Below are positions 45,327 to 64,000 of a DNA stretch of 64,000 nucleotides, piece by piece. Under the pieces are notes generated by a model. It was given only the letters and a program-made list of their open reading frames with translations, did no database searches and was not told where the DNA came from. A program made the position numbers and the translations under genes. Where the stretch lies: contig JAGATD010000033.1 of assembly GCA_017621415.1 (NCBI GenBank), positions 83,311 to 147,310 of the forward strand, written 5' to 3'. The stretch is from Clostridia bacterium (GTDB lineage Bacteria; Bacillota; Clostridia; Oscillospirales; CAG-272). How positions within the stretch are numbered: position 1 is the first letter of the stretch; the number at the start of each line of letters is the position of its first letter.

Positions 45327-45351
45327 TTTATCGGTACGAGGATTTTTGAAG

Positions 45352-46725
45352 ATGAAAAACGAAAAATATTATAAGGCTCTTGCCGACAAGGTTGGCGGTG
45401 AGCAGGGAATAAAAATAGCCGAGGCTATAAGAGATATGTACACTCTCTACAAGCCCGAAATGATAGACTGGTTTGCGAACCTTTACGACCCGGCAGTTGG
45501 CGGATATTATTATTCTAACGGCGCAAGAGATAACGAAAAAATTCACTACCAGGGTGTCAGCTACGACCTGCGCCCCGATACCGAGTCTACCGAGCAGGCT
45601 CTGAGGTTTATCAGCACCTCGGGTCTTCTCGGAGACGGAACGCTAAAGGAAAAGCTCCCCGCCTGGATGCAGGAGCAGATAGTAAGGTATATTAAAGGGC
45701 TACAGGACCCTAACGGATTTTTCTATAATCCCCAGTGGCCTAAGGAGCTTACCGACTCAAAGCTTTCAAGAAGAGCCAGGGACCTTAGCTGGTGCGTGTC
45801 TATTCTTGAAAACCTAGGCTCAGCGCCCACATACGATACCCCAACAGGGGTAAAGGGCGACGGACTTGACATAGACGGCAAACCCATTAAAGTCATTGGT
45901 GAAAGCTCCTGCACCGAGAGGGAAGAGGGGCCTAAAAGCTCGGTTGCGATACCAAAAGAGCTTGAAAACAAGGAAAGCTTCATTAATTATTTAAATTCCC
46001 TCGACATAAAGCACGAGTCCTACTCGGTAGGTAATACGCTGACAGCAATTGCAGGGCAGATAATTTACAGAGACAGGGAGCTTGAAGCTGCGGGAGCTGA
46101 CTATTCGCTCAGAAAGATTGTTATCGACTGGCTTAACGAAAACCAAAATCCCGAAAACGGACTCTGGCACGAGACCGCAAACTATTACGGAGTAAACGGT
46201 CTTATGAAAACCAGCGGAGTTTACGGCAAGATAGGGGTGCTGATGCCCCATGCCGACAAAGCGGTGAAATCCGCCATAGATGCTATAAGCACAGACCAGA
46301 CTCCCGGAGCTGTAACCGATATTTACAATACTTGGTTTGCGGTTACAAGAATTAAGCGACATTTGCGTACCTACGGCGGCGACGAGGGGCAGAGAATGGC
46401 AGATAAAATAGTCGAGGACCTAATAAAAATGGCTCCCGAGGCTATAAGAATTACCAAAGAAAAGCTTTCGGTATTCGCTAAGCCCTACGGCTCATTCTCT
46501 TACACTCCTATGGCATCGGCAGGCAGGTCACAGGGAATGCCTGTTACCTTTAGAGGCGCCTATGAGGGCGACGTTAACGCAACCATAATCTGCTCATCTG
46601 ATATTCTCGGATATATGTATTCTGCACTTGAATTGTCTGATGTGAGAGTTCCTATATATTCTCCCTTGGACTTCGTAAGATACATTGAAATTCTTGAGAA
46701 AAACAGGGCTAAAATTATTGGTTAA
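45352..46725 (+). CDS. alpha/alpha-toroid-like repeat protein, no signal peptide (paralogue of 779..2032 and of the toroid domain of 40086..45326)
   Basis: Collinear similarity to the lipoprotein toroid region over the whole length (WFANLYDPAVGG(Y/F)YYSN, STEQALRF, NGLWH.E.NYY.VNGLMK.SGVY, GAVTDIYNTWFAV, GSFSYTPM, EGDVNAT(I/V)ICSSD(I/V)LGY). Confidence 0.8.
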   Translation: MKNEKYYKALADKVGGEQGIKIAEAIRDMYTLYKPEMIDWFANLYDPAVGGYYYSNGARDNEKIHYQGVSYDLRPDTESTEQALRFISTSGLLGDGTLKEKLPAWMQEQIVRYIKGLQDPNGFFYNPQWPKELTDSKLSRRARDLSWCVSILENLGSAPTYDTPTGVKGDGLDIDGKPIKVIGESSCTEREEGPKSSVAIPKELENKESFINYLNSLDIKHESYSVGNTLTAIAGQIIYRDRELEAAGADYSLRKIVIDWLNENQNPENGLWHETANYYGVNGLMKTSGVYGKIGVLMPHADKAVKSAIDAISTDQTPGAVTDIYNTWFAVTRIKRHLRTYGGDEGQRMADKIVEDLIKMAPEAIRITKEKLSVFAKPYGSFSYTPMASAGRSQGMPVTFRGAYEGDVNATIICSSDILGYMYSALELSDVRVPIYSPLDFVRYIEILEKNRAKIIG

Positions 46726-46906: not shown

Positions 46907-46953
46907 AATTTGTAAAAACAAAATTTTCAAAAATATGAAAGGTGAAAAAAACT

Positions 46954-49146
46954 ATGAAAAACACAAACCATTCCCGCATTCTTATTTTAGCTCTCTCGCT
47001 TGTAATTCTCGTAGGCGCTATGGTTGGCTTCTCCTCAAGCGCTGAGGACACAGAATATACGAACGAGATCGTATCTATGAACATCGCATACGGCGACACA
47101 GTTCAGGTTCTTATTGCTCTTGACGCTCCCATAGACAACCAGGATGGTATTACTGTTAAGTATATCGACCCTAATGGTGACGAGCAGACCGCAACCTATT
47201 GGAAGACAATGGACGTTAAGGGTACCAATCGCCCTGTATGGTACACTAAGGGCATATCCGCAAAGGACCTTGGTCAGGATGTTGTTGCTACCGTTTATGT
47301 TGACGGTGAGGCTATCAGCACCGCAAATGTTAGCGTTGGACATTACCTTTACACAAAGCTTTACAAGGAAGGTTTTATCAACGCAACCGAAGAAACAGAC
47401 CTTCACAAGAAGGAGCTTTACCAGAACCTTCTTACCTATGCGGCATCTGCTGAGACTGTTCTTTGGAATGATAAGGCAGAGAATGCATCTAACCAGAGAG
47501 TTCTTATTACCGATAAGCTTTACGTTTATGCGGTTGATGGCACTGTTGACGCAGACAAGAAGCTGACAGAGGACGTGCTTACAAAGTCCGAAACTGTAAC
47601 TCTTAACTATACCGGCACCGCTCCAGAGGGATATGAGTTTACAGGAATTTGGCTTTCTTCTATCGACGGTACATCGGTAATAAAGGATGGCGTTGCTACA
47701 ATGCCTACCGTTCACGGTGTTTACGAGCCTATATTCGACTCTGTGACCCATACCGTCGGCAAGTATTATTCCAGCGAAACCGAGGGCACAAGATACGACT
47801 TTGATACAAAACTCAATCTTTCCGGTGACGATCAGACAGACCTCTCGGTTTATAATGCTGAAACCAATCCTACAGGCATTCTTGCAAACGAGCTTGGTGC
47901 AGATGCAACAGCCAGCCTTGTTTCCGATAAGCTTTCTACTCTTGACAACTCTACAGGCGAACTTGTATTTAATATGACCTCCACCGACTGGACCGGCTTC
48001 AATCTTGCTAACAAAAGTGACACAGAAGGTGCTACGGGCTCAAAGTATATCGCGGAGTTTGACTTTACCTACATTGATTCCGCAGCTTACACAGGCTCAG
48101 GCAGCTCCAATCAAGTTGCATTCTACATAGGACCCACATCTTATAACGAGAACGACAAGTATATGCACTCTATAACTCACGCAAAGTTTGAGGCAGACCG
48201 TGAGGTAATGATGTTCGGTAACGTTCCTGTGGTAAAGGGCAGAACCTATACTATTCGAATCGAAACCACCGTTGACGGTAGCTATGCTCTTTACGTTAAC
48301 GACGTTCTCGCTGCCGATAAGCCTGGTTATTACACCAATGAAGCTGAAATTCCTGCAGATTATGATGAAACAATCTATGCAGGCTTTGGATTCACTGTTC
48401 GTCAAAGACACGCAGGCGATAGCTTCTCGTTCTCTGTTGATAACTTCTATATGGGTACTATCGACTCATATTATGATGATAAGACGGTAGCAGGTGACAG
48501 ATACGACTTTACCGATAGCTTTGATGTTTCGGTATATGATGCGGAATCCAATTCCACAGGTCTTCTTGCAGGAACTCTTACAAACGATGATGTTGATGCT
48601 CTTCAGACTAAAAAAACTCTGTCGCTTACCAACACCGACAGTCGTCTTCTGGTTGATATGACAACAAGAGAATGGGCAGGATTTACTATTGCAAACAGAG
48701 AAGCAGTTACTGCATATGAAGGCTCTGTTCATATTGCCGAGTTTGACTTCACCTACATTTCTAACACTGCATATACCGGCACAAGCAAACCAGACTATAA
48801 TGCATTTGCTTTTGGTATCTCCAGTAGTGGAGGTGCTCTTAACAGTATGATCTGTTACAACTATGTGGACCACAAGGATGATACTTTTGGAGGATCTCTT
48901 GCATATAATACTGCAGTATTCGAGATGAACAAGACCTACAGGATAAGAATTGAGAGCACTGTTGGCGGTGACGAGCTTATCTACGTTGATAACGTTCTCG
49001 TTTCTAAAAACGCAAGTGCCAAAGGTAAATCGAACGATCCTTACATCTACGCAGGTCTTGGATTCTACTTCCGTGACAGACACGCAGGAGATGCTTTGTC
49101 ATTCTCTATCGACAATCTGTTTATGACAACTCTTGATCCTAAGTAA
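46954..49146 (+). CDS. secreted protein with an N-terminal beta-rich region and two LamG-like jelly-roll modules
   Basis: Start at ATG 46954 (AAAGGTG RBS). Signal peptide MKNTNHSRILILALSLVILVGAMVGFSSSA. Modules GTRYDF...KGRTYTIRIETTVDG..LYVNDVL...FSVDNFYMG and GDRYDF...NKTYRIRIESTVGG..IYVDNVL...FSIDNLFMT. Confidence 0.85.
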   Translation: MKNTNHSRILILALSLVILVGAMVGFSSSAEDTEYTNEIVSMNIAYGDTVQVLIALDAPIDNQDGITVKYIDPNGDEQTATYWKTMDVKGTNRPVWYTKGISAKDLGQDVVATVYVDGEAISTANVSVGHYLYTKLYKEGFINATEETDLHKKELYQNLLTYAASAETVLWNDKAENASNQRVLITDKLYVYAVDGTVDADKKLTEDVLTKSETVTLNYTGTAPEGYEFTGIWLSSIDGTSVIKDGVATMPTVHGVYEPIFDSVTHTVGKYYSSETEGTRYDFDTKLNLSGDDQTDLSVYNAETNPTGILANELGADATASLVSDKLSTLDNSTGELVFNMTSTDWTGFNLANKSDTEGATGSKYIAEFDFTYIDSAAYTGSGSSNQVAFYIGPTSYNENDKYMHSITHAKFEADREVMMFGNVPVVKGRTYTIRIETTVDGSYALYVNDVLAADKPGYYTNEAEIPADYDETIYAGFGFTVRQRHAGDSFSFSVDNFYMGTIDSYYDDKTVAGDRYDFTDSFDVSVYDAESNSTGLLAGTLTNDDVDALQTKKTLSLTNTDSRLLVDMTTREWAGFTIANREAVTAYEGSVHIAEFDFTYISNTAYTGTSKPDYNAFAFGISSSGGALNSMICYNYVDHKDDTFGGSLAYNTAVFEMNKTYRIRIESTVGGDELIYVDNVLVSKNASAKGKSNDPYIYAGLGFYFRDRHAGDALSFSIDNLFMTTLDPK

Positions 49147-49581: not shown

Positions 49582-49754
49582 TGATATATCTCTAACGAGA
49601 TATGATATACAGCTTTGCCGTATGATATATTTTCACTTCGTGAAAACATGATATAATATCCGTTCCTGAATATGCCGCAGGCATATATCATCGCTCGTAG
49701 AGCGATATCATACCAAAGGAATATCACCCGTTCCGCAGAGGAACGGATATCATT
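49582..49754. repeat. array of eight (A)TGATAT(A) motifs, four forward then four reverse, interleaved with short tetraloop-type hairpins
   Basis: ATGATATA at 49582, 49603, 49623 and 49649. Reverse complement (T/G)ATATCAT at 49685, 49705 and 49747, plus a partial AATATCAC at 49721. Hairpins: ATATCTC-TAAC-GAGATAT, TTTTCAC-TTCG-TGAAAA, ATATGCC-GCA-GGCATAT, CGCTC-GTA-GAGCG, CCGTTCC-GCAGA-GGAACGG. Confidence 0.7.
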
Positions 49755-49801
49755 GAGGCGCACTCCGTAAGGACGTGCGCCTCGAAAGAAGGGCTTTTTT
49801 A

Positions 49802-50626
49802 TTACATCTTCATCAGATAATCGTATGTAGCTTTTACAAGCTTTGTTTTTTGGTGCAGGACCTCTCGGGGGCAGTTCTTTGAGTCGCCGGGGATTTCATA
49901 GTTAAACATCCCCTCGTAATTTATCTCTCTCAGACCGTCAATAAAGTCCTGCCAGTCAATATTTCCACGGCTGAACGGGAGAATATGCTGGTCCTCACCG
50001 CCGTCGTTATCGTGAACGTGCAGAGCTTTTATAAGGCTTCCTCCCTTTACGAGAAATTCCTTTTGAGAGGAGGTTTTTGTCCTGTTAAGGTGGCCTGTAT
50101 CAAGGCAAATTGCAAATTTCGGTGAGCCAACTCTCTTGATTAGCTCGAGAATAGGGTCAATTCCCACAGGAGCGCCGCCGCCAAGGTTTTCAAGACAGAT
50201 GTACATATCAATATGCGCCGTACGTCTTGCAACCTCCTTAAGAGCAACAACATTTTTTTCAAATATGTCCTCGTCGGTCACATCAACCCCGCGCATATAG
50301 TCGCAGTGTAGAACAGAGCACTTAATGCCGATAGCCTCGTAGAGCTCTGCCTGGCGGACAATATAGTCAATAAAGCTTTCACCCTCGCAGACAATAAGAG
50401 AGGGAAAAGCCAAGTGACCCTGCGTTGCGGTAATGCCATGCTCAGCCATAAATTCTTTGAATTTTCTGCCGTTTTCTCTATAGTCTCCATCTCTTGCCAA
50501 AATGGCGCTGCCGTGCTCATGAGAAAGCTCAATATGAGTTACTCCGTCTTTTTCAAACTCGAGAATAGCCTCTTCGGGCTCCTCGGTGTTGTAATACTGT
50601 GACCATATACTAAATGGCGCGTTCAT
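49802..50626 (-). CDS. xylose-isomerase-like TIM-barrel protein (sugar phosphate isomerase/epimerase family)
   Basis: 274 aa; THIELS, CLENL, CLDTGH and HVHDN patterns typical of the AP_endonuc_2 fold. Confidence 0.75.
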   Translation of the reverse strand: MNAPFSIWSQYYNTEEPEEAILEFEKDGVTHIELSHEHGSAILARDGDYRENGRKFKEFMAEHGITATQGHLAFPSLIVCEGESFIDYIVRQAELYEAIGIKCSVLHCDYMRGVDVTDEDIFEKNVVALKEVARRTAHIDMYICLENLGGGAPVGIDPILELIKRVGSPKFAICLDTGHLNRTKTSSQKEFLVKGGSLIKALHVHDNDGGEDQHILPFSRGNIDWQDFIDGLREINYEGMFNYEIPGDSKNCPREVLHQKTKLVKATYDYLMKM

Positions 50627-50669
50627 AGATAATTATACTCCTTTTTCTGGAAGACGCAGTTTGTTTGAT

Positions 50670-51401
50670 TTAGTCGTGTCTTTGGTCCTTACGGTAATAG
50701 GTTTCGCAAAATCTTGCGGCAAATGCAGGCTCAACATCTTTAACATAAAGGTGTGACGTATCGCCAAAGCTGCCCATTCTGAAATATGCGACACCCTCTC
50801 TGCGCTCCTCGGTTACAAGGGTTGTTACAGAAGTGGGCGCAGCGCAGCTGCCGTGCCATAGAGGTACAGGTGAAATATTCAGAATGTGAGAGAGTAAAAC
50901 ACATTCAAGGCCGAAATGGCAGAAGAGAACTACCGTATCCTCGTTGGGTCTCTCAGCACGGTAAACAAGGCCGTCTCTTACATATCCGTGCTTTTCAAGC
51001 AAAGTGTCAAGCCCGTCGCACACATATTTATATGCCTCGGGAACACCCGCCTCCTTGTATACAGGTACGTTCATCCATTTATCCTTGTCGAAAAATTCGG
51101 GGATAACGGTCCAGGCGGTAGGAAGCCAGTCCCAGCAGCAGCTAAGCTCCTCAGCTCCCTCTTTTCCTTTTATCTGAGGAGGAAATTCGCGAAGCCAATC
51201 AAGAGTTTCAGCCTCTCTGCCCATTTTTCTAAGAGTGGGCTTTGAAGTCGCCTGTGCTCTTCCTAATGGGGAGCAATAAAAGGCTGTAACATCCATTTTT
51301 TTAATCTTTTCCGAGAGCAGCTCCGCTTCAATAAAGCCCCCCTCGGTCAGCGAGTCGTGCTCGTAGTCCGGGTCGCCGTGCCTTATGATAATAAGCTTCA
51401 T
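50670..51401 (-). CDS. histidine phosphatase (phosphoglycerate-mutase-like) family protein
   Basis: N-terminal catalytic RHG motif (LIIIRHGDPD) and SPLGRAQ.T. Confidence 0.8.
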   Translation of the reverse strand: MKLIIIRHGDPDYEHDSLTEGGFIEAELLSEKIKKMDVTAFYCSPLGRAQATSKPTLRKMGREAETLDWLREFPPQIKGKEGAEELSCCWDWLPTAWTVIPEFFDKDKWMNVPVYKEAGVPEAYKYVCDGLDTLLEKHGYVRDGLVYRAERPNEDTVVLFCHFGLECVLLSHILNISPVPLWHGSCAAPTSVTTLVTEERREGVAYFRMGSFGDTSHLYVKDVEPAFAARFCETYYRKDQRHD

Positions 51402-51413
51402 AACTTTTCCTCT

Positions 51414-52310
51414 TTATCCGAGACGTCTTTCGTAAAGGGTCATAAAGTCCTCTTCGGTAACACCCGAGTGCTCGTAAGGACAGTCGTAAACAGGGTCGGG
51501 GAATGTGAGAAGCCCGCCGAGAATATTCTCGTGGTCTGCGCCGCCCATTTTGTAGAGCTTATGCTCATCACATACCTTTTCGTAGAAGTCGTGCTCCTCG
51601 GGAGTGAGCATAGAGTGCCTGGTCTCAAAGCCCATAACACCCATGTTGATATAATAATCTACAAGATGACCGTTGTTATGAGGGTGGGCAATAACAGGAA
51701 CACCGCCCGCCGCCTTTATGATACGTACAACGTCCTCGGTTATAATGTCCTTGTAGCCGTATCCGATAATTTCGCGAATCTTATCCTCGTAGCCCAGACG
51801 GTAAGAGAAGTTGGGCTTTAGGAACACGTCGTCATACTCTGCCTTTATGTAAATTCCGCGCTTAAGCATGGATTCAAAGACCTGGTTGTTGCAGATGTAG
51901 TCGTTATAGGGGTGGTCGTCAAGCACGTCTTGCCAAGTAATACCGTCTCTGAGAGTTCCGCGCTCCTGTCCCCACTTAAAGAGCAGCTCAGAGCGTTTTG
52001 TCTGAATGGAAGACCCTTTGCGCAAAAGCTCACGCATTTCGGGGTACTCGGGGTCAAAGTCAAAGCCGCAAAGATGCGCTCCGCCATGCCGGTTATGGGT
52101 AGAGAACTCACATCCCATCATGGTTTTCATGCCGCGTCTGTCGCACTCAGCCTTGATAAAGGGATAACCCTTTGCTGTGTCGTGGTCGGTGAGAATGATT
52201 CCACCGTGTCCCATGTTCCATGCCATTCTCGCCAGAGTTTCGGGGGTATATTCCGCATCCGAGAAGCAGGAGTGGTTATGGCAGCTTGCAAAAATTCTTA
52301 CATCACTCAT
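51414..52310 (-). CDS. PHP-domain metal-dependent phosphoesterase
   Basis: CHNHSCFSD..YTPE......GHGGIILTDHD (PHP motifs I/II) and downstream His clusters (IAHPH). Confidence 0.75.
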   Translation of the reverse strand: MSDVRIFASCHNHSCFSDAEYTPETLARMAWNMGHGGIILTDHDTAKGYPFIKAECDRRGMKTMMGCEFSTHNRHGGAHLCGFDFDPEYPEMRELLRKGSSIQTKRSELLFKWGQERGTLRDGITWQDVLDDHPYNDYICNNQVFESMLKRGIYIKAEYDDVFLKPNFSYRLGYEDKIREIIGYGYKDIITEDVVRIIKAAGGVPVIAHPHNNGHLVDYYINMGVMGFETRHSMLTPEEHDFYEKVCDEHKLYKMGGADHENILGGLLTFPDPVYDCPYEHSGVTEEDFMTLYERRLG

Positions 52311-52573
52311 TTTTAAATACCTCGTGTCTTTGTCCTCAATAAATTCAAGGAGAGTATATTGTTAATTATAGCACAAAAGACCTGCTTGGTCAAGATTATT
52401 TCATAAAATAAATAAAATATTTTAAATATTTTAAGCTGCGCTGTTAATTAAGCTTGAAACAATGCTAACAACTAATAAAATGGGTTAAGAATTGATAAGC
52501 TAAATTGGCAAATAATCTTGAAAAATGAAAAGAATTGTTTGCAAAATACCTGCAAATTGCGTTTTTTAGGAAA

Positions 52574-52612
52574 TAAAAAATTCGAAGAGAAAAAATCTCT
52601 TCGAATTTTTTG
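52574..52612. terminator. bidirectional terminator ending the T-box-controlled two-gene operon
   Basis: AATTCGAAGAGA-AAAAA-TCTCTTCGAATT flanked by A- and T-runs. Confidence 0.75.
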
Positions 52613-52642
52613 TATGTGATTTGCAGGCTGAAGCTCTGCGAG

Positions 52643-55156
52643 TTAAGATTTTGCCGGTCCTGCGGTGTCGGAGCCGTCTCCGACCAGTCCGAGGCGCTTT
52701 GCGGCATCCTCTCTCATCTTATATTTAAGAACCTTTCCCGCAGCATTCATAGGGAAGCTGTTAACAAATTCAATGTACTTCGGAACCTTATGACGCGCCA
52801 TACTTGCCTTAATGTAGTCGGACATTTCCTCAACGGTAACGCTACCCGGCTCTTTAAGGATAATGCAAGCCATAATTTCCTCACCGTATTTTTTATCGGG
52901 AACACCGATAACCTGTACGTCCTTTGTCTGAGGGTGAGTATAGATGAACTCCTCAATTTCTTTAGGATAAATATTTTCGCCTCCGCGGATTATCATATCC
53001 TTAAGACGTCCTGTAATGCGGTAGTTGCCATCCTCGTCACGGGATGCAAGGTCGCCCGAGTGAAGCCAGCCGTCCTCGTCTATTGTGCCCTTTGTTGCCA
53101 TAGGCATTTTGTAATAGCCTTTCATCTGGTTGTAGCCCTTGGCGCAGAACTCACCGTTAACACCGGGTCCAACCTCTTCGCCTGTTTCGGGGTCTACTAT
53201 CTTGCAGCGAACGTGCGGGAATGCGTATCCAACCGTTTCGGTACGCACCTCAAGTGAGTCAGTCCAGGAGCTCATTGTGTTTCCGGGAGCGCATTCGGTC
53301 TGACCGTAAACGCTGACAATACCTGTCATATTCATTTCATCGGGCCTTGCGGCTCTGCGCATAAGCTCAGGGGGACAGCCCGCACCTGCCATAATACCTG
53401 TTCTCATATGGGAGAAGTCGGTAGAACGGTAGCTTGGGTGGTTAAACATTGCGATAAACATCGTGGGAACGCCGTTAAAGCAGGTGATTTTTTCCTGATT
53501 TATACAAGCGAGAGATGATTTTGCGGAGAAGTATGGCATAGGACACATGGTAGTTCCGTGGGTCATTGATGATGTCATAGACAGTGTCATTCCGAAGCAG
53601 TGGAACATAGGCACCTGAATCATCATTCTGTCAGCGGTGGAAAGACCCATGCGGTCGCCTATACACTTGCCGTTATTTACAACATTGTAGTGAGTAAGCA
53701 TAACTCCCTTAGGGAAGCCTGTTGTTCCTGAGGTGTATTGCATGTTACATACATCGCTTGGGCGTACCGCCGCTGCCATTTTAGCAACCTGCTCGGAGCT
53801 TACAAGCTTGTATCTTGCCATAGCCTCGTCAAAGGTGAGAGAGCCGGGCTGCTTGAAGCCTACTGTAATAACATTTCTGAGGAATGGCAGCTTCTTTGAA
53901 TGAAGAGGCTCGCCGGGAACGGTGTCTTTTATTTCGGGACAGAGTGTGTTTATAATTTCCTTGTAGTTTGAGTCAAGGCAGCTGTCAATCATAACCAGTG
54001 TATGGGTATCAGACTGACGGAGCAGGTACTCGGCCTCGTGAATCTTATATGCGGTGTTAACTGTGACAAGAACTGCACCGAGCTTTACGGTAGCCCAGAA
54101 TGTGATATACCACGCGGGAAGGTTTGTTGCCCATATTGCAACCTTAGAGCCCGCCTTTACACCAAGAGAAACAAGAGCTCTTGCAAAGCGGTCAACGTCC
54201 TCACGGAACTCGGCATAGGTTCTTGTGTAATCAAGTGTTGTGTACTTAAAGCAGTACTGGTCAGGGAACTCGTCGGCAACTCTGTCAAGCACCTGTGAAA
54301 ATGTAAGGTCGATAAGCTCGTCTTTTTTCCACACATACTGGCCTGTGCCGTCATGGTTGAAGTAGAGTTTCTTTTTCATATCCCTTGTTGAATGGAAGCG
54401 GGACATGTAGTTTACAAAATGAGGGAAAATAATTTCGGGGTCAGAGAGCTCGTCGAGCCACTCGGGCTTCCACTCAAGAGAGATAAAGTTATCGTAGTTT
54501 ACCGAGGAAAGAGCGCGCATAACGTCGTCAATAGGCATACTGCCCTCGCCGATAAGCTGATATGTTCCCTCATCGTCAGAGTCTCTTAAGTGAACATGGC
54601 GCACATAGCAGCCAAGGTTTTTTATTGTATCATCACCCGACTCACCGTTGTCTCTGTATGGGTGATGAACGTCCCAAAGAACCGCAAGATTGTCGCTTGC
54701 AAAACGGTCAAGCATATCTCTAAGTCTTGCTGTGTTTGAATAAATTCCGCTTGTTTTTACAAGAATTGTAACATCCGAGGCTTCAGCATAAGGTAAAAGC
54801 TCGGTGAGCACCGAATATACAGTATCCTCATTGTCATTAAGCGCGCATACAACAACATAGGGCACACGGCTGTCGCTTGCAGTATTTATAAGAGACTTTA
54901 CGGTATCCTTTACAGATGGGTCTTTGGAGATGTCGCAGGATGTGTCAAAGCAGGGAATAGTGAGCTGCTTTTCGCGAAGAGTGCGCACTGTTGCAGCAGT
55001 ATTATACTTGTGGAAAGGACCTCCGCGGTCGGTAAGAGCATTAAAGCTTTGAAGATTATAAACCTCTATGCCGGAAAAACCCATTTCCTGCGCTGTTTCC
55101 AGCATTTCATCAAAGGACAGCCCCGGCCAGCCTCTTGTGGAAAAGGAGAGCTTCAT
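52643..55156 (-). CDS. fusion protein: N-terminal xylose-isomerase-like TIM barrel (~270 aa) + C-terminal AMP-forming acyl-CoA synthetase/ligase (~560 aa)
   Basis: N-terminus: MKLSFSTRGW...GFSGIEVY...HVHLRD...SLEW. C-terminus: AMP-binding motif YTSGTTGFPKGV, GYGQTE-like VYGQTE, WLHSGDL, GRLKDMIIRGGENIYPKEIE. ATGA overlap with the upstream gene. Confidence 0.85.
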   Translation of the reverse strand: MKLSFSTRGWPGLSFDEMLETAQEMGFSGIEVYNLQSFNALTDRGGPFHKYNTAATVRTLREKQLTIPCFDTSCDISKDPSVKDTVKSLINTASDSRVPYVVVCALNDNEDTVYSVLTELLPYAEASDVTILVKTSGIYSNTARLRDMLDRFASDNLAVLWDVHHPYRDNGESGDDTIKNLGCYVRHVHLRDSDDEGTYQLIGEGSMPIDDVMRALSSVNYDNFISLEWKPEWLDELSDPEIIFPHFVNYMSRFHSTRDMKKKLYFNHDGTGQYVWKKDELIDLTFSQVLDRVADEFPDQYCFKYTTLDYTRTYAEFREDVDRFARALVSLGVKAGSKVAIWATNLPAWYITFWATVKLGAVLVTVNTAYKIHEAEYLLRQSDTHTLVMIDSCLDSNYKEIINTLCPEIKDTVPGEPLHSKKLPFLRNVITVGFKQPGSLTFDEAMARYKLVSSEQVAKMAAAVRPSDVCNMQYTSGTTGFPKGVMLTHYNVVNNGKCIGDRMGLSTADRMMIQVPMFHCFGMTLSMTSSMTHGTTMCPMPYFSAKSSLACINQEKITCFNGVPTMFIAMFNHPSYRSTDFSHMRTGIMAGAGCPPELMRRAARPDEMNMTGIVSVYGQTECAPGNTMSSWTDSLEVRTETVGYAFPHVRCKIVDPETGEEVGPGVNGEFCAKGYNQMKGYYKMPMATKGTIDEDGWLHSGDLASRDEDGNYRITGRLKDMIIRGGENIYPKEIEEFIYTHPQTKDVQVIGVPDKKYGEEIMACIILKEPGSVTVEEMSDYIKASMARHKVPKYIEFVNSFPMNAAGKVLKYKMREDAAKRLGLVGDGSDTAGPAKS

Positions 55157-56605: not shown

Positions 56606-56880
56606 CAAAAAAACAAAAATCCCTGAGGCTGCCAAACGCAGCTTCAGGGACGAAAATACATTTCGCGGTACCACCCTGATTATCCCCCAAAAAGGGAAAT
56701 CTCTCAACCTCAAACAAGGTATTGCCCTGTAACGGTGGCATCCGTGTCTCATTACTCGCGTATCGCTTTGACAAGACCGACTCGGGAAGAAGAATGCCCA
56801 ACCCATCCGTATCGGCTTACACCAACCGCCGACTCTCTGCAACATCCGAAAAGGGCAAGATTTCCGTCACTGTCTTTAAG
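56606..56880 (-). promoter_or_regulatory. T-box leader (tRNA-sensing riboswitch) with terminator/antiterminator
   Basis: On the - strand: K-turn GACAGUGACGGAA, AGAGAG box, distal GGUUGGUGUAAGCC, F-box CCGUUA, T-box AAUCAGGGUGGUACCGCG. Terminator CCCUGAAGCUGC-GUUU-GGCAGCCUCAGGG followed by AUUUUUGUUUUUUU. Confidence 0.9.
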
Positions 56881-56903
56881 TGAATGGCTATTCAATTATC
56901 TAT

Positions 56904-56932
56904 ATTTAATCACTAAACTGCCGTTTTGTCAA
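56904..56932 (-). promoter_or_regulatory. promoter for the - strand T-box operon
   Basis: On the - strand: TTGACA, 17 bp, TTAAAT. Confidence 0.5.
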
Positions 56933-57028
56933 GAGAAAATTTGAAAAAATGAACATATTTGTCATTTGTGTCAAAAAAGGATTTAAGCTTTCAGCATAAT
57001 TTTGGATATTTTAACAACAAAAAAATGT

Positions 57029-57057
57029 TTGACATTTGAAAAAAGATGTGGTACAAT
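57029..57057 (+). promoter_or_regulatory. promoter for the + strand T-box operon
   Basis: TTGACA (57029-57034), 17 bp, TGgTACAAT extended -10 (57052-57057). Confidence 0.6.
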
Positions 57058-57065
57058 AAACTCAT

Positions 57066-57316
57066 AAAAACTGTGACGAAGACGGTACGGTGAAAAAGTT
57101 CTCAGAGAATCGGCGGTTGGTGTGAGCCGATAGCTTGTAGCCTCAGTGCCTATCACTTCCGAGTTGGTGGTTCGAGCGATTATCGCCAGGGCTTACCCGT
57201 GCACCCGCGTTAAGGGATAGGGCTTGTTGGAGTCTGAAGCGGCGATCTATCGCAATTTGAGTGGTACCGCGGGTATATTTACTCGTCTCAAGAATTATTT
57301 CTTGAGATTTTTTTGT
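57066..57316 (+). promoter_or_regulatory. T-box leader (tRNA-sensing riboswitch) with terminator/antiterminator
   Basis: K-turn AACUGUGACGAAG, AGAGAA box, distal GGUUGGUGUGAGCC, F-box-like GCGUUAA, T-box AAUUUGAGUGGUACCGCG. Terminator UCUCAAG-(7 nt)-CUUGAGA followed by UUUUUUU. Confidence 0.9.
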
Positions 57317-57442
57317 TTTTATAGGACTTTTTAAGTCTGATTTATCCCTATTACTATTAAACTAGCGGTTTTGTGTTTCATTATAACTAATGAAATAATT
57401 CTATAATCCAAAAACCAAAAAAACGAACAGGAGGAAAAAGCT

Positions 57443-59710
57443 ATGACGAAACAAACCGAAACAAATCAACTTCAGAGGATAGCGCTTCGAATTCGCGAAA
57501 TGCGTCAGATTCTCGGTTTTACTACGGCGGAGATGGCAGAGAAAACAGATCTCACAGAAGAGACCTATCTCTCATACGAGTCGGGCACAGTTGATTTACC
57601 ATTTACATTTATGCACAAGTGTGCGAAGGTGTGCGGCATAGAGATTACCGATATTCTTGAGGGACACAGCGCAAAGCTGTCGGGATATACAATCACCCGC
57701 AAGGGCGAGGGACTCACTACTGCCAGCGAGGACGGCATCACCATTCAGGATATGGCGCCTCTCTTCCGTCAGAAGCTTGCAACCCCATATTGGGTTACAT
57801 ATAAATATTCCGAGGAGCTTCAGAGCCAGCCTATAAGCACGGTTACTCACGCAGGTCAGGAGTTTGACCTTGTATTAAAGGGTGCTATGCGTATCCGTGT
57901 TGGCGAGAAGGAAGAGGTTCTTCGCGAGGGCGACAGCATCTTCTATAAATCCTCAACACCCCACGGTATGATTGCTGTTGAGGGTGAGGATTGCGTATTC
58001 CTTGCAATGGTTATGGCAAGCGATACAACCGATACTCCTATGTATATCGGAAACGGTGACTACAAGGTGTCTGAGAGACCTCTTCTTTGTGAGAAGTTTG
58101 TTAAGCCTGTTGAGGACGAGAACGGAGTTCTTGTTGATATTAATTATGAGAATGAAGAAAAGTATAACTTTGCCTTTGATACAGTTGACGAAATAGCCCG
58201 TAAGTATCCCGATAAGCTGGCTATGCTCCATATTTCTAACGATATGACAGAGCGCCGCTTTACATTTAAGGATATGAAAGATGCCTCCTCACAGAGCGCA
58301 AACTACTTTAAGTCCCTGGGAATCAAGCGCGGCGACAGAGTTATGCTGGTGCTTAAGAGACATTACCAGTTCTGGTTTGCTATTCTCGGTCTTCATAAGC
58401 TTGGCGCTATTGCTATTCCCGCAACAAATCAGCTGGTAGAGCATGACTTTACCTATCGCTTCAAGGCGGCAGGAGTAAGCGCAATTCTCTGTACTGCAGA
58501 CGGTGATACCGCGCATCAGGCAGAGCTTGCAGAGGCAGCCAGCGGTCTTTCGCTTACCAAAATTATGGTTGGCGGAGAGAGAGAGGGCTGGCACAACTAC
58601 GACCGTGAGTTTGTTCTCTTCAGCCGTAGATATGTGCGTGAGGCTGATGCTCCCTGCGGAAGCGACCCTATGCTTATGCTGTTTACTTCGGGAACAACAG
58701 GCTATCCCAAGATGGCTATGCATTCATATAAGTATGCTCTCGGTCATTACGTAACCGCAAAATACTGGCACCTTTGCCGACCCGACGGATTACACTTTAC
58801 CATTTCCGAAACAGGATGGGGTAAGGCGCTTTGGGGTAAGCTTTACGGTCAATGGCTCTGCGAGGGCGCGGTATTTACCTACGACTTTGACAGATTTGAT
58901 TCGGCAAAGATTCTTCCTATGTTTGCCAAGTATAAAATCACCACATTCTGCGCGCCTCCCACAATGTACAGGATGCTTATCAAGCAGGATTTAAGTCAGT
59001 ATGACCTCTCCTCTATCCGCCACGCAACTACTGCGGGTGAGGCGCTTAACCCCGAGGTGTTCTATCAGTTTGAAAAGTCCACAGGGCTTCGTATCGCTGA
59101 GGGCTTCGGTCAGACCGAGATGACTCTCGGTATCGGAAACCTGCTTGGCACACAGCTTAAGCCCGGCGCTATGGGTAAGCCTATCCCCGGATATGGCATA
59201 GACCTTGTTGATACAGACGGAAATCCGGTTGCCGACGGTGTAAACGGTGAAATAGTTATCCGTACCGAGCCTAAAACCGCCTGCGGCGTATTCCTCGGTT
59301 ATTATCTCAACCAAGAGGCGACCGACAATGTATGGCATGACGGTATGTACCATACAGGCGACCTCGCTTGGCGCGATGAGGACGGATATTACTGGTATGT
59401 GGGACGCGCCGATGACGTTATCAAGTCTTCGGGCTACCGTATCGGTCCGTTCGAGATAGAGTCTACAATTATGGAGCTTCCTTATGTTCTTGAGTGCGGT
59501 GTTTGCGCAGCTCCCGACGAGGTTAGAGGTCAGGTTGTTAAGGCGTGCATCGTGCTTGTTAACGGAACAGAGGGCACAGAGGAGCTGAAAAAGGAAATTC
59601 AGAATTACGTAAAGCTTCATACAGCCCCCTACAAGTATCCCAGAATTGTAGAATTCCGCAAAGAACTGCCTAAAACAATAAGCGGTAAAATAATGAGAAA
59701 TAAGCTGTAA
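57443..59710 (+). CDS. fusion protein: XRE-type HTH + cupin domain (~190 aa) + medium-chain-type AMP-forming acyl-CoA synthetase
   Basis: HTH IREMRQILGFTTAEMAEKTDLTEETYLSYESG; cupin HAGQEFDLVLKG..R..VG......GDSIFY.S..PHGM. AMP-binding FTSGTTGYPK, GFGQTE, YHTGDLA, GRADDVIKSSGYRIGPFEIES and a C-terminal SGKI.R. Confidence 0.85.
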   Translation: MTKQTETNQLQRIALRIREMRQILGFTTAEMAEKTDLTEETYLSYESGTVDLPFTFMHKCAKVCGIEITDILEGHSAKLSGYTITRKGEGLTTASEDGITIQDMAPLFRQKLATPYWVTYKYSEELQSQPISTVTHAGQEFDLVLKGAMRIRVGEKEEVLREGDSIFYKSSTPHGMIAVEGEDCVFLAMVMASDTTDTPMYIGNGDYKVSERPLLCEKFVKPVEDENGVLVDINYENEEKYNFAFDTVDEIARKYPDKLAMLHISNDMTERRFTFKDMKDASSQSANYFKSLGIKRGDRVMLVLKRHYQFWFAILGLHKLGAIAIPATNQLVEHDFTYRFKAAGVSAILCTADGDTAHQAELAEAASGLSLTKIMVGGEREGWHNYDREFVLFSRRYVREADAPCGSDPMLMLFTSGTTGYPKMAMHSYKYALGHYVTAKYWHLCRPDGLHFTISETGWGKALWGKLYGQWLCEGAVFTYDFDRFDSAKILPMFAKYKITTFCAPPTMYRMLIKQDLSQYDLSSIRHATTAGEALNPEVFYQFEKSTGLRIAEGFGQTEMTLGIGNLLGTQLKPGAMGKPIPGYGIDLVDTDGNPVADGVNGEIVIRTEPKTACGVFLGYYLNQEATDNVWHDGMYHTGDLAWRDEDGYYWYVGRADDVIKSSGYRIGPFEIESTIMELPYVLECGVCAAPDEVRGQVVKACIVLVNGTEGTEELKKEIQNYVKLHTAPYKYPRIVEFRKELPKTISGKIMRNKL

Positions 59711-59757: not shown

Positions 59758-59787
59758 TTGACAAGACCCGACAAGGTTATGTATAAT
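59758..59787 (+). promoter_or_regulatory. near-consensus sigma-A promoter in front of the second synthetase paralogue
   Basis: TTGACA (59758-59763), 18 bp, TATAAT (59782-59787). Confidence 0.6.
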
Positions 59788-59859: not shown

Positions 59860-62145
59860 GTGGAACCGATTTTGAACGAAATGGAAAACAAAATAAAGCA
59901 AATAGCAAATCGTATAAAGGAGCTTCGTCTTATCACAGGTCTTTCTGTCCAGGAAATGGCTACTCGCACAGGTACTACTGTCGAGGAATACGAACAGTGC
60001 GAGGCAGGTAACCGCAACTTAAGCATTGCATTCCTTTATCACTGTACATTAAGCTTCGGCGTTGATATGGGAGATATCCTTGAGGGTAAAAGCCCCAAGC
60101 TCCGCTCGTATGCGCTTACACGCAAAGGCGACGGTCAGAAAATAGAGGAAGCTCATCATATGATAGGCTATAACCTTGCTTCCGGCTTCCGCAACCGTAT
60201 TGCATTGCCGCTTTATATGGAACTTGGATATCGCGAGGGCTCGGAAAATCAGCCTATTGATCTTGTAACTCACGAGGGTCAGGAATGTGATATCGTGATT
60301 AAGGGTCAAATGAAAATTCAGATTGGCGACCACTCTGAGATACTGAATCCCGGCGATTGTATTTATTATGACTCCGGCACACCCCACGGTATGATTGCCG
60401 TAAACGGCGAGGATTGTACATTCTATGCTATCGTGCTCCGCAACCAGGCGGCAAGAGAGGGTGAGCAGGTAGCTGAAATGTCGGCTGCCACCAAGCGCCT
60501 TGAGGAGGATTCAAAGCGCCGTGTATATCACGACTTTATTATTCCAACCGAAGAAAACGGTGTTCTTAAGAAGATTGAATTCAAGAATGAAGAGAAGTTC
60601 AACTTTGCCTTTGATGTTGTTGATGCTCTTGGCAGACGCAAGCCCGAGAAGCTTGCTATGCTTCACGTAAGCGAGGACGGAACTGAAAGGCGCTTTACAT
60701 TCCGCGATATGAAAAAGGAGTCGGCAAGAGCTGCCAACTACTTTAAATCTCTGGGTATCAAGCGCGGTGATAGGGTAATGCTTGTTTTGAAGCGCCACTA
60801 TCAGTTCTGGTTTGCTATTCTTGGTTTACATAAGCTTGGTGCGGTTGCTATTCCCGCACCCAACCAGCTTCTAGAAAAGGACTTTAAATACCGCTTTGAG
60901 GCAGGTAAGGTAAAGGCTATACTCTGCACCTCTGACGGTGAGGTTGCCGATGCGGTAGATAAGGCAGCTGCTCAATGCCCCGGACTTGAATACAAGATAA
61001 TTGTGGGTAAGGACAGAGAGGGCTGGCATAACTTCAATGAGGAGTATGCTATCTTCAGCAGCCATTATGCCCGCACAGAGGATGCGCCCTGCGGCAGCGA
61101 CCCGATGCTGATGTACTTTACCTCGGGAACCAGCGGCTATCCCAAAATTGCGGCTCATAACTATAAATATCCTCTCGGTCACTTTATAACCGCTAAGTAT
61201 TGGCACCAGGTTAATCCCGAGGGACTTCACTTCACAATTTCCGATACAGGCTGGGCAAAGGCTATGTGGGGTAAGCTTTACGGCCAGTGGCTCTGTGAGG
61301 CGGCAAACTTTGTTTACGACTTTGACAGATTTGATGCCGAGAAGATACTTCCTCAGTTTGCAAAGCATAAGATTACTACATTCTGCGCACCTCCCACAAT
61401 GTACAGAATGCTGATAAAGCAGGATCTTTCAAGGTTTGACCTCTCTTCAATAGAGCATGCATCGACTGCGGGCGAGGCGCTTAACCCTGAGGTATTCCGC
61501 CAGTTTGAAAAGCACACAGGTCTTAAGATTATGGAGGGCTTCGGCCAGTCCGAGAGTACACTTATTATCGGTAATCTTGCGGGCGGCAGCCACAAGATAG
61601 GCTCTATGGGTAAGCCTGTTCCTCTTTACGACGTTCATCTTCTTAACCCCGACGGTGAGGAGGTTCAGAGAGGTGAAAGCGGTGAGATATGCATAAATAT
61701 CTCGAACGGACTTCCTTGCGGTCTTGCATATGCATATGAGGCAAACGAGGAGGTTACCCGCGAGACCTGGCGTGAGGGATATTATCACACAGGCGACGTT
61801 GCTTGGATGGATGAGGACGGATTCCTCTGGTATGTCGGACGCGCTGATGACGTTATTAAGTCCTCGGGCTACAGAATAGGTCCGTTTGAGATTGAGAACG
61901 TAATTATGGAGCTTCCTTATGTTCTTGAGTGCGGCGTTTCTGCCGCTCCCGATGAAATAAGAGGCCAGGTAGTTAAGGCAAGCATAGTTCTCGTTAGTGG
62001 TACCGAGGGAACAGACGAGCTGAAAAAAGAAATTCAGAATTACGTTAAGTCCCGTACCGCGCCTTACAAGTACCCAAGAATTGTGGAATTCCGTGAGAGT
62101 CTTCCTAAGACCACCAGCGGAAAGATTATAAGAAAACAACTTTAA
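59860..62145 (+). CDS. second HTH-cupin::acyl-CoA synthetase fusion (tandem paralogue of 57443..59710)
   Basis: Same architecture with long identical stretches (ANYFKSLGIKRGDRVMLVLKRHYQFWFAILGLHKLGA; ITTFCAPPTMYRMLIKQDLS; GRADDVIKSSGYRIGPFEIE). GTG at 59860 behind AGAGGT; alternative ATG at 59881. Confidence 0.85.
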   Translation: MEPILNEMENKIKQIANRIKELRLITGLSVQEMATRTGTTVEEYEQCEAGNRNLSIAFLYHCTLSFGVDMGDILEGKSPKLRSYALTRKGDGQKIEEAHHMIGYNLASGFRNRIALPLYMELGYREGSENQPIDLVTHEGQECDIVIKGQMKIQIGDHSEILNPGDCIYYDSGTPHGMIAVNGEDCTFYAIVLRNQAAREGEQVAEMSAATKRLEEDSKRRVYHDFIIPTEENGVLKKIEFKNEEKFNFAFDVVDALGRRKPEKLAMLHVSEDGTERRFTFRDMKKESARAANYFKSLGIKRGDRVMLVLKRHYQFWFAILGLHKLGAVAIPAPNQLLEKDFKYRFEAGKVKAILCTSDGEVADAVDKAAAQCPGLEYKIIVGKDREGWHNFNEEYAIFSSHYARTEDAPCGSDPMLMYFTSGTSGYPKIAAHNYKYPLGHFITAKYWHQVNPEGLHFTISDTGWAKAMWGKLYGQWLCEAANFVYDFDRFDAEKILPQFAKHKITTFCAPPTMYRMLIKQDLSRFDLSSIEHASTAGEALNPEVFRQFEKHTGLKIMEGFGQSESTLIIGNLAGGSHKIGSMGKPVPLYDVHLLNPDGEEVQRGESGEICINISNGLPCGLAYAYEANEEVTRETWREGYYHTGDVAWMDEDGFLWYVGRADDVIKSSGYRIGPFEIENVIMELPYVLECGVSAAPDEIRGQVVKASIVLVSGTEGTDELKKEIQNYVKSRTAPYKYPRIVEFRESLPKTTSGKIIRKQL

Positions 62146-62905: not shown

Positions 62906-63112
62906 ATGGCAAAGGTAACTTTTAATACCGATATGTGTAAGGGCTGCGGTCTTTGTGTTGATGCGTGCCCTAAAAAATGTCTTGCGATTGCAGACGACAA
63001 GCTTAACCAAAAGGGCTACTCTCCCGCTTATATGAAAGAGCAGGAGAAGTGTATTGGATGCGCATTCTGTGCAACAATGTGCCCCGATTGTATAATTACT
63101 GTTGAAAAGTAA
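62906..63112 (+). CDS. 2x[4Fe-4S] ferredoxin-type delta subunit of a 2-oxoacid:ferredoxin oxidoreductase
   Basis: CKGCGLCVDACP and CIGCAFCATMCP motifs; 68 aa; immediately upstream of the alpha subunit. Confidence 0.85.
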   Translation: MAKVTFNTDMCKGCGLCVDACPKKCLAIADDKLNQKGYSPAYMKEQEKCIGCAFCATMCPDCIITVEK

Positions 63113-63127
63113 GGAAAGGAGACTGTT

Positions 63128-64000
63128 ATGGCAGAAAGAATTTTAATGAAAGGCAACGAGGCTATTGCTGAAGCTGCGATAAGAGCAGGTTGCCGTCACT
63201 ATTTTGGTTATCCTATCACTCCCCAGACTGAGATTGCCGCTTATATGGCAAAGAAAATGCCTAAGATTGGCGGAGTATTTCTTCAGGCAGAGAGCGAAAT
63301 TGCATCTATAAACATGGTATATGGCGCAGCTGCGGCAGGTATGCGTGTTATGACATCATCCTCCAGCCCCGGAGTTTCACTTAAGGCTGAGGGTCTTAGC
63401 TACATAGCCGGCTCTGATGTTCCCGCGCTTGTTGTTAACGTACAGAGAGGCGGCCCCGGTCTCGGCGGTATTCAGCCCTCTCAGTCTGATTATTTCCAGG
63501 CTACAAAGGGCGGCGGACACGGTGATTACCGTATGATAGTTCTTGCTCCCGCATCGGTTCAGGAAATGGCAAGTCTTACTATCAAGGGCTTCGACCTTGC
63601 TGATAAATACTGCGTTACCTCTATGATCCTTGCCGACGGAACAATCGGTCAGATGATGGAGCCTATTACCTTTGAGGACACCGAGCCTAAGGTTTATGAC
63701 AAGCCCTGGGCGCTTACAGGTACTGAGGGAAAGCGTAAGCACAATGTTGTTAACTCACTTTACCTTAAGCCCGACGAGCTTGAAAAGAAGAATTTCGAGC
63801 GTTATGAAAAATACGCTGAGATAGAGAAGAACGAGGCTATGTGGGAGGAATATATGATGGACGATGCCGAATATTGCGTTGTAGCATTCGGTATTGCATC
63901 CCGTGTAGCGAAGAATGCGGTAGTAGCCGCAAGAGAAGAGGGAATTAAGGTAGGTCTTATCCGTCCTATCACCCTTTGGCCCTTCCCCACAGCTGCTTTT
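63128..64000 (+). CDS. vorB: 2-oxoacid:ferredoxin oxidoreductase alpha subunit, VorB-like (3' end outside the window)
   Basis: Not in the ORF track because there is no stop before the window end. My translation: MAERILMKGNEAIAEAAIRAGCRHYFGYPITPQTEI....FLQAESEIASINMVYGAAAAGMRVMTSSSSPG...VVNVQRGGPGLG. Confidence 0.8.
   Translation, partial: MAERILMKGNEAIAEAAIRAGCRHYFGYPITPQTEIAAYMAKKMPKIGGVFLQAESEIASINMVYGAAAAGMRVMTSSSSPGVSLKAEGLSYIAGSDVPALVVNVQRGGPGLGGIQPSQSDYFQATKGGGHGDYRMIVLAPASVQEMASLTIKGFDLADKYCVTSMILADGTIGQMMEPITFEDTEPKVYDKPWALTGTEGKRKHNVVNSLYLKPDELEKKNFERYEKYAEIEKNEAMWEEYMMDDAEYCVVAFGIASRVAKNAVVAAREEGIKVGLIRPITLWPFPTAAF

Follow-up and report, generated by a model that had tools for sequence, protein, structure and literature searches.

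The window analysed here is a 64-kb stretch of DNA from a Clostridia bacterium (contig JAGATD010000033.1 of assembly GCA_017621415.1). It contains two operons that are transcribed away from each other, each of them behind a T-box riboswitch leader of its own. On the - strand, the leader carries a leucine (Leu) specifier codon and is followed by a LeuA-like synthase gene and by a gene in which a TIM barrel is fused to an AMP-forming acyl-coenzyme A (acyl-CoA) ligase. On the + strand, the leader carries an isoleucine (Ile) specifier codon and is followed by ACS1, another acyl-CoA ligase gene. Behind ACS1 come its paralogue ACS2, a ParA-like gene, a ferredoxin gene and the beginning of a gene for a 2-oxoacid:ferredoxin oxidoreductase. 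The coordinates of these features are collected in Table 1.

Sequences compared and thresholds

The whole window was scanned by Rfam cmscan, where the gathering score of the T-box family, RF00230, is 93. For comparison, 80 loci with genes related to that of the downstream ligase were taken from a species-representative genome collection. Their source genomes are gut metagenome-assembled genomes (from ruminants, other animals and humans) labelled as Oscillospiraceae, Faecousia, Acutalibacteraceae, Ruminococcus or similarly. A strict regular expression for the T-box sequence and the distal loop retrieved only 84 leaders and missed about half of them, and an nhmmer profile made from the first leaders was used in its place. 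The profile yielded 171 T-box leaders in the 80 loci and the window, and 169 homologous leaders were compared. The specifier was parsed in a register anchored on the kink-turn (K-turn) and the 4-bp lower stem, and the leaders were grouped by the gene that follows them. The NCBIfam cutoffs that matter here are 850 for the MbcS equivalog (NF047394), 399 for VorB (NF005507), 532 for 2-isopropylmalate synthase and 832 for PRK12583.

Table 1. The two T-box leaders and the operons behind them, in positions of the window
Feature	Position	Strand	Evidence
T-box leader, Leu class (Stem I, II, IIA/B, III, antiterminator)	56879..56643	-	RF00230, 112.4 bits, E 4.8e-24, 1-219/219
T-box leader, Ile class	57064..57293	+	RF00230, 94.5 bits, E 2e-19, 1-219/219
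Specifier CUU (Leu), then C 56789 and lower-stem strand UUCC 56788..56785	56792..56790	-	Rfam alignment register, homologues
Specifier AUC (Ile), then A 57155 and lower-stem strand CUUC 57156..57159	57152..57154	+	Rfam alignment, homologues
T-box sequence GGGUGGUACCGCG, UGGU tRNA-acceptor-binding bulge 56673..56670	56664..56676	-	Sequence, Rfam, fold
T-box sequence AGUGGUACCGCG, UGGU bulge 57262..57265	57260..57271	+	Sequence, Rfam, fold
Intrinsic terminator, Leu leader (hairpin 56651..56619 and U tract)	56606..56651	-	-23.6 kcal/mol, z -4.94
Intrinsic terminator, Ile leader (hairpin 57285..57308 and U tract)	57285..57321	+	-12.4 kcal/mol, z -4.72; terminator scan
Putative promoter, Leu leader: TTGACA 56932..56927, 17 nt, TTAAAT 56909..56904	56904..56932	-	Read by eye
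Promoter, Ile leader: TTGACA, 17 nt, TACAAT, extended TG	57029..57057	+	11/12 consensus matches
LeuA-like synthase, 467 aa, ATG at 56556 after GGAGAA	55153..56556	-	Pfam PF00682 (HMGL-like TIM barrel), PF08502 (LeuA_dimer)
Fusion, 837 aa: N-terminal xylose-isomerase-like TIM barrel and AMP-forming acyl-CoA ligase	52643..55156	-	Pfam PF01261, PF00501, PF13193
18-bp hairpin terminator closing the Leu operon	52573..52613	.	Terminator scan
ACS1, 755 aa: PuuR-like helix-turn-helix (HTH) and cupin fused to AMP-forming short/medium-chain acyl-CoA synthetase	57443..59710	+	Pfam
Promoter before ACS2: TTGACA, 18 nt, TATAAT (perfect consensus)	59758..59787	+	Promoter scan; no T-box present
ACS2, 761 aa, ACS1 paralogue (61% identity, same architecture)	59860..62145	+	Pfam, NCBIfam, pairwise comparison
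ParA/Mrp-like P-loop NTPase, 222 aa	62196..62864	+	Weak Pfam ParA/CbiA matches
2x[4Fe-4S] ferredoxin, 68 aa, oxidoreductase delta subunit	62906..63112	+	Pfam Fer4 families
2-oxoacid:ferredoxin oxidoreductase alpha (VorB type), N-terminal 290 aa, cut by window end	63128..64000	+	Pfam POR_N, PFOR_II

Architecture of the leaders

The Rfam scan of the window gave three matches above the gathering scores, and two of them are full-length T-boxes, the + leader being only 1.5 bits over its gathering score. Both leaders, by their sequence and the Rfam alignment, have a basal K-turn (AC-AGUGAC / ACUGUGAC). Above it, an AGAGA bulge is located at 56838..56834 in the - leader and at 57104..57108 in the + leader. 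The distal loop GGUUGGUGU(A/G)A, the F-box CGUUA and the T-box sequence (G/A)GUGGUACCGCG with its UGGU bulge are likewise present in both. Each antiterminator folds with a 7-nt bulge that contains the UGGU and has a strand in common with the terminator. As the 5' arm of the terminator overlaps the 3' arm of the antiterminator in each leader, the two folds are mutually exclusive. Both elements are canonical transcription-attenuation T-box riboswitches, placed back to back on divergent promoters.

A sequence-only reading of this stretch had already called two T-boxes here, with the K-turn, AGAGA box, distal loop, F-box, T-box and terminator, UGGU in both bulges, divergent promoters, and Stem I regions near-identical in their distal part. 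When the covariance model was run, both leaders were recovered at full length above the gathering score, and the listed elements and bulges lie where they had been placed. The distal Stem I proved nearly identical between the two leaders, which overall share about half of their positions. Of the promoters, TTGACA/TACAAT with its TG appears in the consensus promoter scan on the + strand. TTGACA/TTAAAT can be read on the - strand and is absent from the scan's list because its -10 is weak.

The helices are also maintained in evolution. In the Stem I of 45 Leu-class homologues, 91.8% of the cells are paired, as against at most 42% in slid controls, and compensatory changes are found in 14 of 19 pairs; none of 500 shuffles reached the observed values. 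The U of the UGGU bulge predicts a tRNA with discriminator A73, which is usual for Ile, Leu and valine (Val) tRNAs. A scan of the window and of 60 loci of relatives found no gene for tRNA-Ile, tRNA-Leu or tRNA-Val.

Specifier codons

By comparison of sequences, the specifier of the + leader is AUC (Ile) and that of the - leader is CUU (Leu). The leaders that precede ACS1-type genes carry AUC in 76 of 77 cases, and the A, the U and the C are all invariant in an alignment of 76 Ile-class Stem I sequences. Similarly, 38 of the 39 leaders before ACS2-type genes have a Val codon, either GUA (28) or GUC (10), and 43 of the 49 before LeuA-like genes have a Leu codon, namely CUG (31), CUC (10) or CUU (2). 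The remaining six are parse failures, and four of these were re-read by eye as CUC. All 45 aligned Leu-class leaders have CU at the first two positions; at the third, G, C and U occur, and CUG is the commonest codon. This synonymous variation of the third base in the Leu and Val classes is the behaviour of a true codon, and phenylalanine (Phe) is excluded by it. The base 3' of the specifier is A or C in the Ile class (A in the + leader of the window) and G in the Val class. In the Leu class it can be any base (C18, A13, G11, U4), and it is C in the window (56789).

AUC at 57152..57154 had been the first choice of the sequence-only reading for the + leader, and the ACS1-type leaders together with the Rfam alignment uphold it. 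The alternative that it named, CUC-A (Leu, 57142..57145), falls in unconserved columns, in contrast to the AUC that is invariant in 76 homologous leaders, and was rejected. For the - leader it had offered Phe or Leu, both within the stretch UUCUUC (56789..56794), in which the CUU specifier does lie. The sequence of the window alone is indeed ambiguous in this respect; the comparison of homologues settled the matter for Leu. A leader that responds to tRNA-Phe through UUC (56793..56791 or 56790..56788), rather than to tRNA-Leu, would account for the two occurrences of UUC in the window's UUCUUC and for a CUU without a 3' purine. The 45 aligned homologues, however, read C, U and then G, C or U, and CUG is not a Phe codon in any register. 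The Ile and Val classes also share the register anchored on the K-turn, the codon positions are CUU in the Rfam alignment, and the first gene encodes a LeuA-like protein whose regulatory domain is of the leucine type. The Phe reading is thus left with next to no probability. The expectation of a pathway for a hydrophobic amino acid agrees with the Ile and Leu specifiers found.

The Leu operon

Both operons contain acyl-CoA ligases, as had been claimed for them, but the description of an acyl-CoA-ligase operon fits the - strand only in part: its first gene is LeuA-like, a classical kind of target for a Leu T-box, and the ligase fusion comes second. The best NCBIfam model for the LeuA-like protein is 2-isopropylmalate synthase, at 290.9 bits against the cutoff of 532, and the match to isopropylmalate synthases in the PDB is only about 96 bits. 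Homocitrate synthase models score far below isopropylmalate synthase. Citramalate synthase was considered and rejected, its models reaching 31 to 41 bits as against 291. The enzyme is therefore described as a divergent member of the family with a putative substrate. In the relatives too, the gene lies behind a Leu T-box, and 59 matching open reading frames (ORFs) are present across their loci.

The fusion gene overlaps the stop codon of the LeuA-like gene by 4 nt and adjoins that gene in essentially all relatives that have it. Its ligase part scores 656 bits with PRK12583, for which the cutoff is 832, and is proposed to be an isovalerate-CoA ligase. The fused TIM barrel (54331..55156, - strand) has as its best solved relative the uncharacterised MJ1311 (E 5.6e-07), along with weak similarity to sugar 3-epimerases and hydroxypyruvate isomerase in the PDB and NCBIfam. 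A paralogous relation of this barrel to the AP_endonuc_2 gene downstream was also tried; the similarity is remote only, with 21% identity over 84 residues.

The Ile-side genes

The catalytic domain of ACS1 matches MacsMa, the Methanosarcina acetivorans ligase of PDB entry 3ETC, with 602 bits and 52% identity over approximately 515 residues. It is proposed that ACS1 is a 2-methylbutyrate-CoA ligase, as the Ile specifier and the biochemistry of its homologues suggest. On the Val specifier of the relatives and the same biochemistry, ACS2 is proposed to be an isobutyrate-CoA ligase. Most clusters of the relatives have the ParA-like NTPase gene (61 matching ORFs), with ACS2 on one side of it and the oxidoreductase genes on the other. 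This ParA/Mrp/NUBPL-like protein may act as an Fe-S cluster carrier for the oxidoreductase.

Both ligases carry an additional N-terminal module of about 200 residues (57443..58144 in ACS1 and 59860..60580 in ACS2), for which segments of 234 and 240 aa were searched. The modules match, weakly and over their full length, the architecture of PuuR-type regulators, in which an HTH_3 domain is joined to a cupin. Here, the same two domains are fused to an enzyme. Searches with the module in the PDB and NCBIfam returned weak, uninformative matches only. The domain content suggests a second, ligand-dependent layer of control above the T-box, exerted through DNA binding or allostery.

The divergent promoter region also contains a 34-nt direct repeat (71% identity) at 56935..56968 and 57005..57038. 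TTTG(T/A)CATTTG occurs in both copies, of which the one at 57005..57038 overlaps the -35 of the + promoter. An operator function for the HTH modules is conceivable, and so is a chance repeat in AT-rich DNA.

Conservation of the cluster and the Val switch

Conservation of gene order extends over the 80 loci. At the core, a Leu T-box precedes the LeuA-like gene and the fusion ligase gene. Next to this unit, the relatives have an Ile T-box with ACS1 and then, in many cases after a Val T-box, ACS2, followed by the genes for the ParA-like protein, the ferredoxin and the oxidoreductase subunits alpha, beta and gamma. In more distant genomes, the Leu unit is collinear and is found at the cluster's far end. 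In the closest relative (L001, 88% identical at ACS1), the alpha subunit scores 544 bits against the VorB cutoff of 399. It is followed by the thiamine pyrophosphate-binding beta and the gamma subunits, and then by a dehydrogenase of the glutamate (Glu)/Leu/Phe/Val type. At L074, the position of this dehydrogenase is taken by an IlvE that lies above its NCBIfam cutoff. An aminating enzyme is common in such clusters: 46 of the 58 loci with a VorB alpha also have IlvE (32) or a dehydrogenase of that type (14).

The third T-box of the relatives lies between ACS1 and ACS2 (loci L015 to L080, at about 12300..12700), and its specifier is GUA or GUC followed by G, that is, Val. In most relatives that were compared, a strong promoter lies in the spacer between the two genes; a Val T-box is present there only when the spacer is approximately 320 to 540 nt long. 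In the clade of the window (L001 to L012, L025, L051), this spacer measures 14 to 176 nt and has a consensus promoter and no T-box, which indicates that this lineage has lost its Val switch.

The Ile- and Val-class leaders of L021, L065, L066 and L074 are full-length T-boxes with E values of 1e-12 to 1e-18 and scores of 68 to 91 bits. Since many leaders of the clade thus fall under the gathering score of 93, routine annotation misses most of the Val-class and many of the Ile-class leaders. The sub-threshold scores may explain why the regulon has gone unnoticed.

The same low scores could be taken to mean that the leaders are decaying relics that regulate nothing. The + leader clears the gathering score by just 1.5 bits, many Ile- and Val-class leaders of relatives do not reach it, and the Val leader has already disappeared from this lineage. 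Nevertheless, the structural elements are all intact, and strong terminators compete with the antiterminators. Across 80 genomes, the specifiers show either no variation or synonymous variation alone, and the helices covary. Intactness, constancy of the specifier and covariation are signs of purifying selection, and decay into relics is accordingly given a negligible probability.

Two loci of the comparison set show peculiarities of their own. In L066, the leaders at 8451..8702 (+) and 3042..3292 (+) have atypical specifier loops, with AUC occurring twice and the K-turn register shifted, and this locus has an extra T-box directly before the ParA and oxidoreductase genes. In L038, a tetrahydrofolate riboswitch (RF01831, 71.4 bits) is present at 3247..3344 (+), a few kb upstream of the cluster.

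Proposed function of the regulon

It is considered quite likely that the step gated by each switch is the entry, specific for one amino acid, into a route that leads from a branched fatty acid to its acyl-CoA, and from there by reductive carboxylation to an amino acid. The ferredoxin oxidoreductase genes at the edge of the window, which the sequence-only reading had missed, would explain why ligases should be under T-box control. The response to tRNA, the substrates and the direction of flux we infer as follows. When the amino acid is scarce, uncharged tRNA-Ile or tRNA-Leu would dock on Stem I through pairing of its anticodon with the specifier and through the platform for its elbow. Its free 3' end would then pair with UGGU and stabilise the antiterminator, and transcription would read through. 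Behind the Ile switch, ACS1 would produce 2-methylbutyryl-CoA. Behind the Leu switch, the fusion of TIM barrel and ligase would produce isovaleryl-CoA and, in parallel, the LeuA-like synthase would commit 2-oxoisovalerate to leucine. ACS2, which is under a Val switch in the relatives and a plain promoter here, would supply isobutyryl-CoA. The shared VorB-type oxidoreductase is predicted to carboxylate these acyl-CoAs reductively, in a ferredoxin-dependent reaction, to 2-oxoacids. In the relatives, IlvE or the Leu/Val-type dehydrogenase would finally aminate the 2-oxoacids to Ile, Val and Leu.

Several observations weigh against this proposal. Only ACS1 is found behind the Ile T-box in the window, and ACS2 and the oxidoreductase genes are without one. 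MbcS is the best NCBIfam model for ACS1 (427.1 bits) and for ACS2 (420.9 bits), both below the cutoff of 850; at about half the equivalog cutoff, the two are relatives of MbcS and not its orthologues. In the NCBIfam and PDB comparisons, the fusion ligase had no characterised close relative, and for this reason its assignment to isovalerate is drawn only from its context and its Leu specifier. A simple route of ligase and oxidoreductase does not account for the presence of the TIM barrel or for the close link between the ligase and the divergent LeuA-like enzyme. The purine that usually follows a specifier shows no conservation in the Leu class and is only partly conserved in the Ile class. Moreover, a 2-oxoacid:ferredoxin oxidoreductase is reversible in principle.

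This reversibility opens the way for a catabolic cluster, in which the aminating enzyme and the oxidoreductase would oxidise branched-chain amino acids to acyl-CoAs, the ligases being accessory. Oxidoreductases of this kind are run oxidatively in anaerobes that ferment amino acids. Induction by uncharged tRNA, that is, by a shortage of the amino acid, would however be the wrong logic for breakdown. AMP-forming ligases run towards acyl-CoA, for which they spend ATP without conserving energy, and their direction fits synthesis better than breakdown. Furthermore, the cluster has no phosphotransacylase and kinase or ADP-forming synthetase. A catabolic role is hence regarded as highly improbable.

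The resemblance to MbcS points to another possible use of the ligases. MbcS of Staphylococcus aureus is selective for 2-methylbutyrate and isobutyrate, is poor with isovalerate, and feeds primers to FabH (PMC10026030). It is induced in a CodY-deficient strain, and the authors link this to branched-chain amino acid limitation (PMC13584741). ACS1 and ACS2, with MbcS as their best NCBIfam model, might in the same manner mainly feed branched acyl-CoA primers into the synthesis of branched-chain membrane fatty acids, a low amino acid level being the signal for low primer. The ligases nevertheless share a conserved cluster with a VorB-type oxidoreductase and with either IlvE or an amino-acid dehydrogenase, the Leu operon starts with a LeuA-like synthase, and the cluster showed no genes for fatty acid synthesis. 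T-box regulons, for their part, are known to raise the supply of the cognate aminoacyl-tRNA (PMC2494555). As the main role of these ligases, the supply of lipid primers is considered unlikely. It is not mutually exclusive with the supply of amino acids and could be a second use.

Entry of isoacids into amino acid synthesis, the preferred interpretation, also fits the substrate profile of MbcS and MacsMa. A pair of MbcS-like paralogues would serve Ile and Val, and a ligase of another family would serve Leu. For the Leu branch, a less conventional chemistry can be conceived. The LeuA-like gene is translationally coupled to the fusion ligase gene and nearly always adjoins it, so that the enzyme could use the acyl-CoA made by the fusion. 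For example, by analogy with 3-alkylmalate synthases, it could condense isovaleryl-CoA with glyoxylate to 3-isopropylmalate, and the TIM barrel could supply or process the partner. Taken more widely, the T-box triad for Ile, Val and Leu would give isoacid assimilation in gut Clostridia its first genetic definition. The probability of this reading is judged to be small.

Relation to known T-boxes and to isoacid metabolism

In architecture, and presumably in mechanism, both leaders agree with the canonical T-box leaders of Firmicutes, such as those of ileS, leuS, valS, leuA and the ilv-leu operon of Bacillus subtilis. The K-turn, specifier loop, AG bulge/distal loop platform, Stem II, IIA/B, F-box, Stem III, UGGN bulge and terminator are shared with them. 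The RNA mechanism is thus ordinary, the leaders being standard members of a known family, and it is the regulon that is the new part as far as the literature was searched. leuA was already known as a T-box target, and CoA ligases and oxidoreductases go unmentioned as targets in the survey of Wels 2008 (PMC2494555). Unlike the targets surveyed there, the genes found here are acyl-CoA ligases for branched acids, standing beside a ferredoxin oxidoreductase cluster. A full-text search of the literature gave no paper in which either these ligases or the oxidoreductase are linked with T-boxes; a prior mention in other papers or in regulon or T-box databases is possible.

Among characterised enzymes, MacsMa prefers 2-methylbutyrate (PMC10455477), the very acid that is expected of a ligase gated by Ile. 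It is an archaeal enzyme and, unlike ACS1, has neither the HTH–cupin module nor T-box control. MbcS differs from ACS1 and ACS2 in that it supplies lipid primers, is controlled by CodY and not by a T-box, and is without an oxidoreductase cluster.

Rumen physiologists have known the assimilation of isoacids since the 1960s, and it underlies the feeding of isoacids as supplements. That rumen bacteria and methanogens convert isobutyrate, 2-methylbutyrate and isovalerate by reductive carboxylation to Val, Ile and Leu, respectively, is reported from the classical labelling work of Allison and co-workers and from VOR enzymes. To our knowledge, the work on isoacid assimilation defined the pathway by its physiology. 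The chemistry predicted here is the same, from acid to acyl-CoA, 2-oxoacid and amination, and the source genomes belong to Clostridia of ruminants and other gut environments. What is put forward here, in contrast to the physiological work, is a candidate gene set with amino-acid-specific riboswitches. In the literature searched, no bacterial ligase genes and no regulation were found assigned to isoacid assimilation.

The specifiers AUC, GUA/GUC and CUN would act as built-in labels by which substrates can be assigned to three orphan acyl-CoA ligases. The labels further tie these ligases to a ferredoxin oxidoreductase and an aminating enzyme, and together they would form a complete candidate gene set for the conversion of 2-methylbutyrate, isobutyrate and isovalerate to Ile, Val and Leu. 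A rule of design is suggested as well, at least for the lineage of the window, according to which the entry enzymes specific for one amino acid are gated and the shared enzymes are not. The locus is also an example of T-box duplication with switching of the specifier, accompanied by the lineage-specific loss of one switch.

Other features of the window

The operon downstream of the Leu operon (49802..52310, - strand) has a promoter of its own at 52393..52365 and encodes a PHP phosphoesterase, a histidine phosphatase and the AP_endonuc_2 TIM barrel mentioned above. Weak matches to CobC and CbiR give a hint of cobamide remodelling. Just downstream of the AP_endonuc_2 gene (49802..50626), a Gut-1 RNA (RF01706, 54.9 bits against a gathering score of 50) was detected at 49680..49755 (- strand), within a mechanically called ORF of 99 aa. 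It consists of three hairpins, each of which is followed by UGA(A/U)AU. Elsewhere in the window, four ORFs on the + strand are without any Pfam match: 7660..13014 (1784 aa), 40086..45326 (1746 aa), 45346..46725 (459 aa) and 46942..49146 (734 aa).

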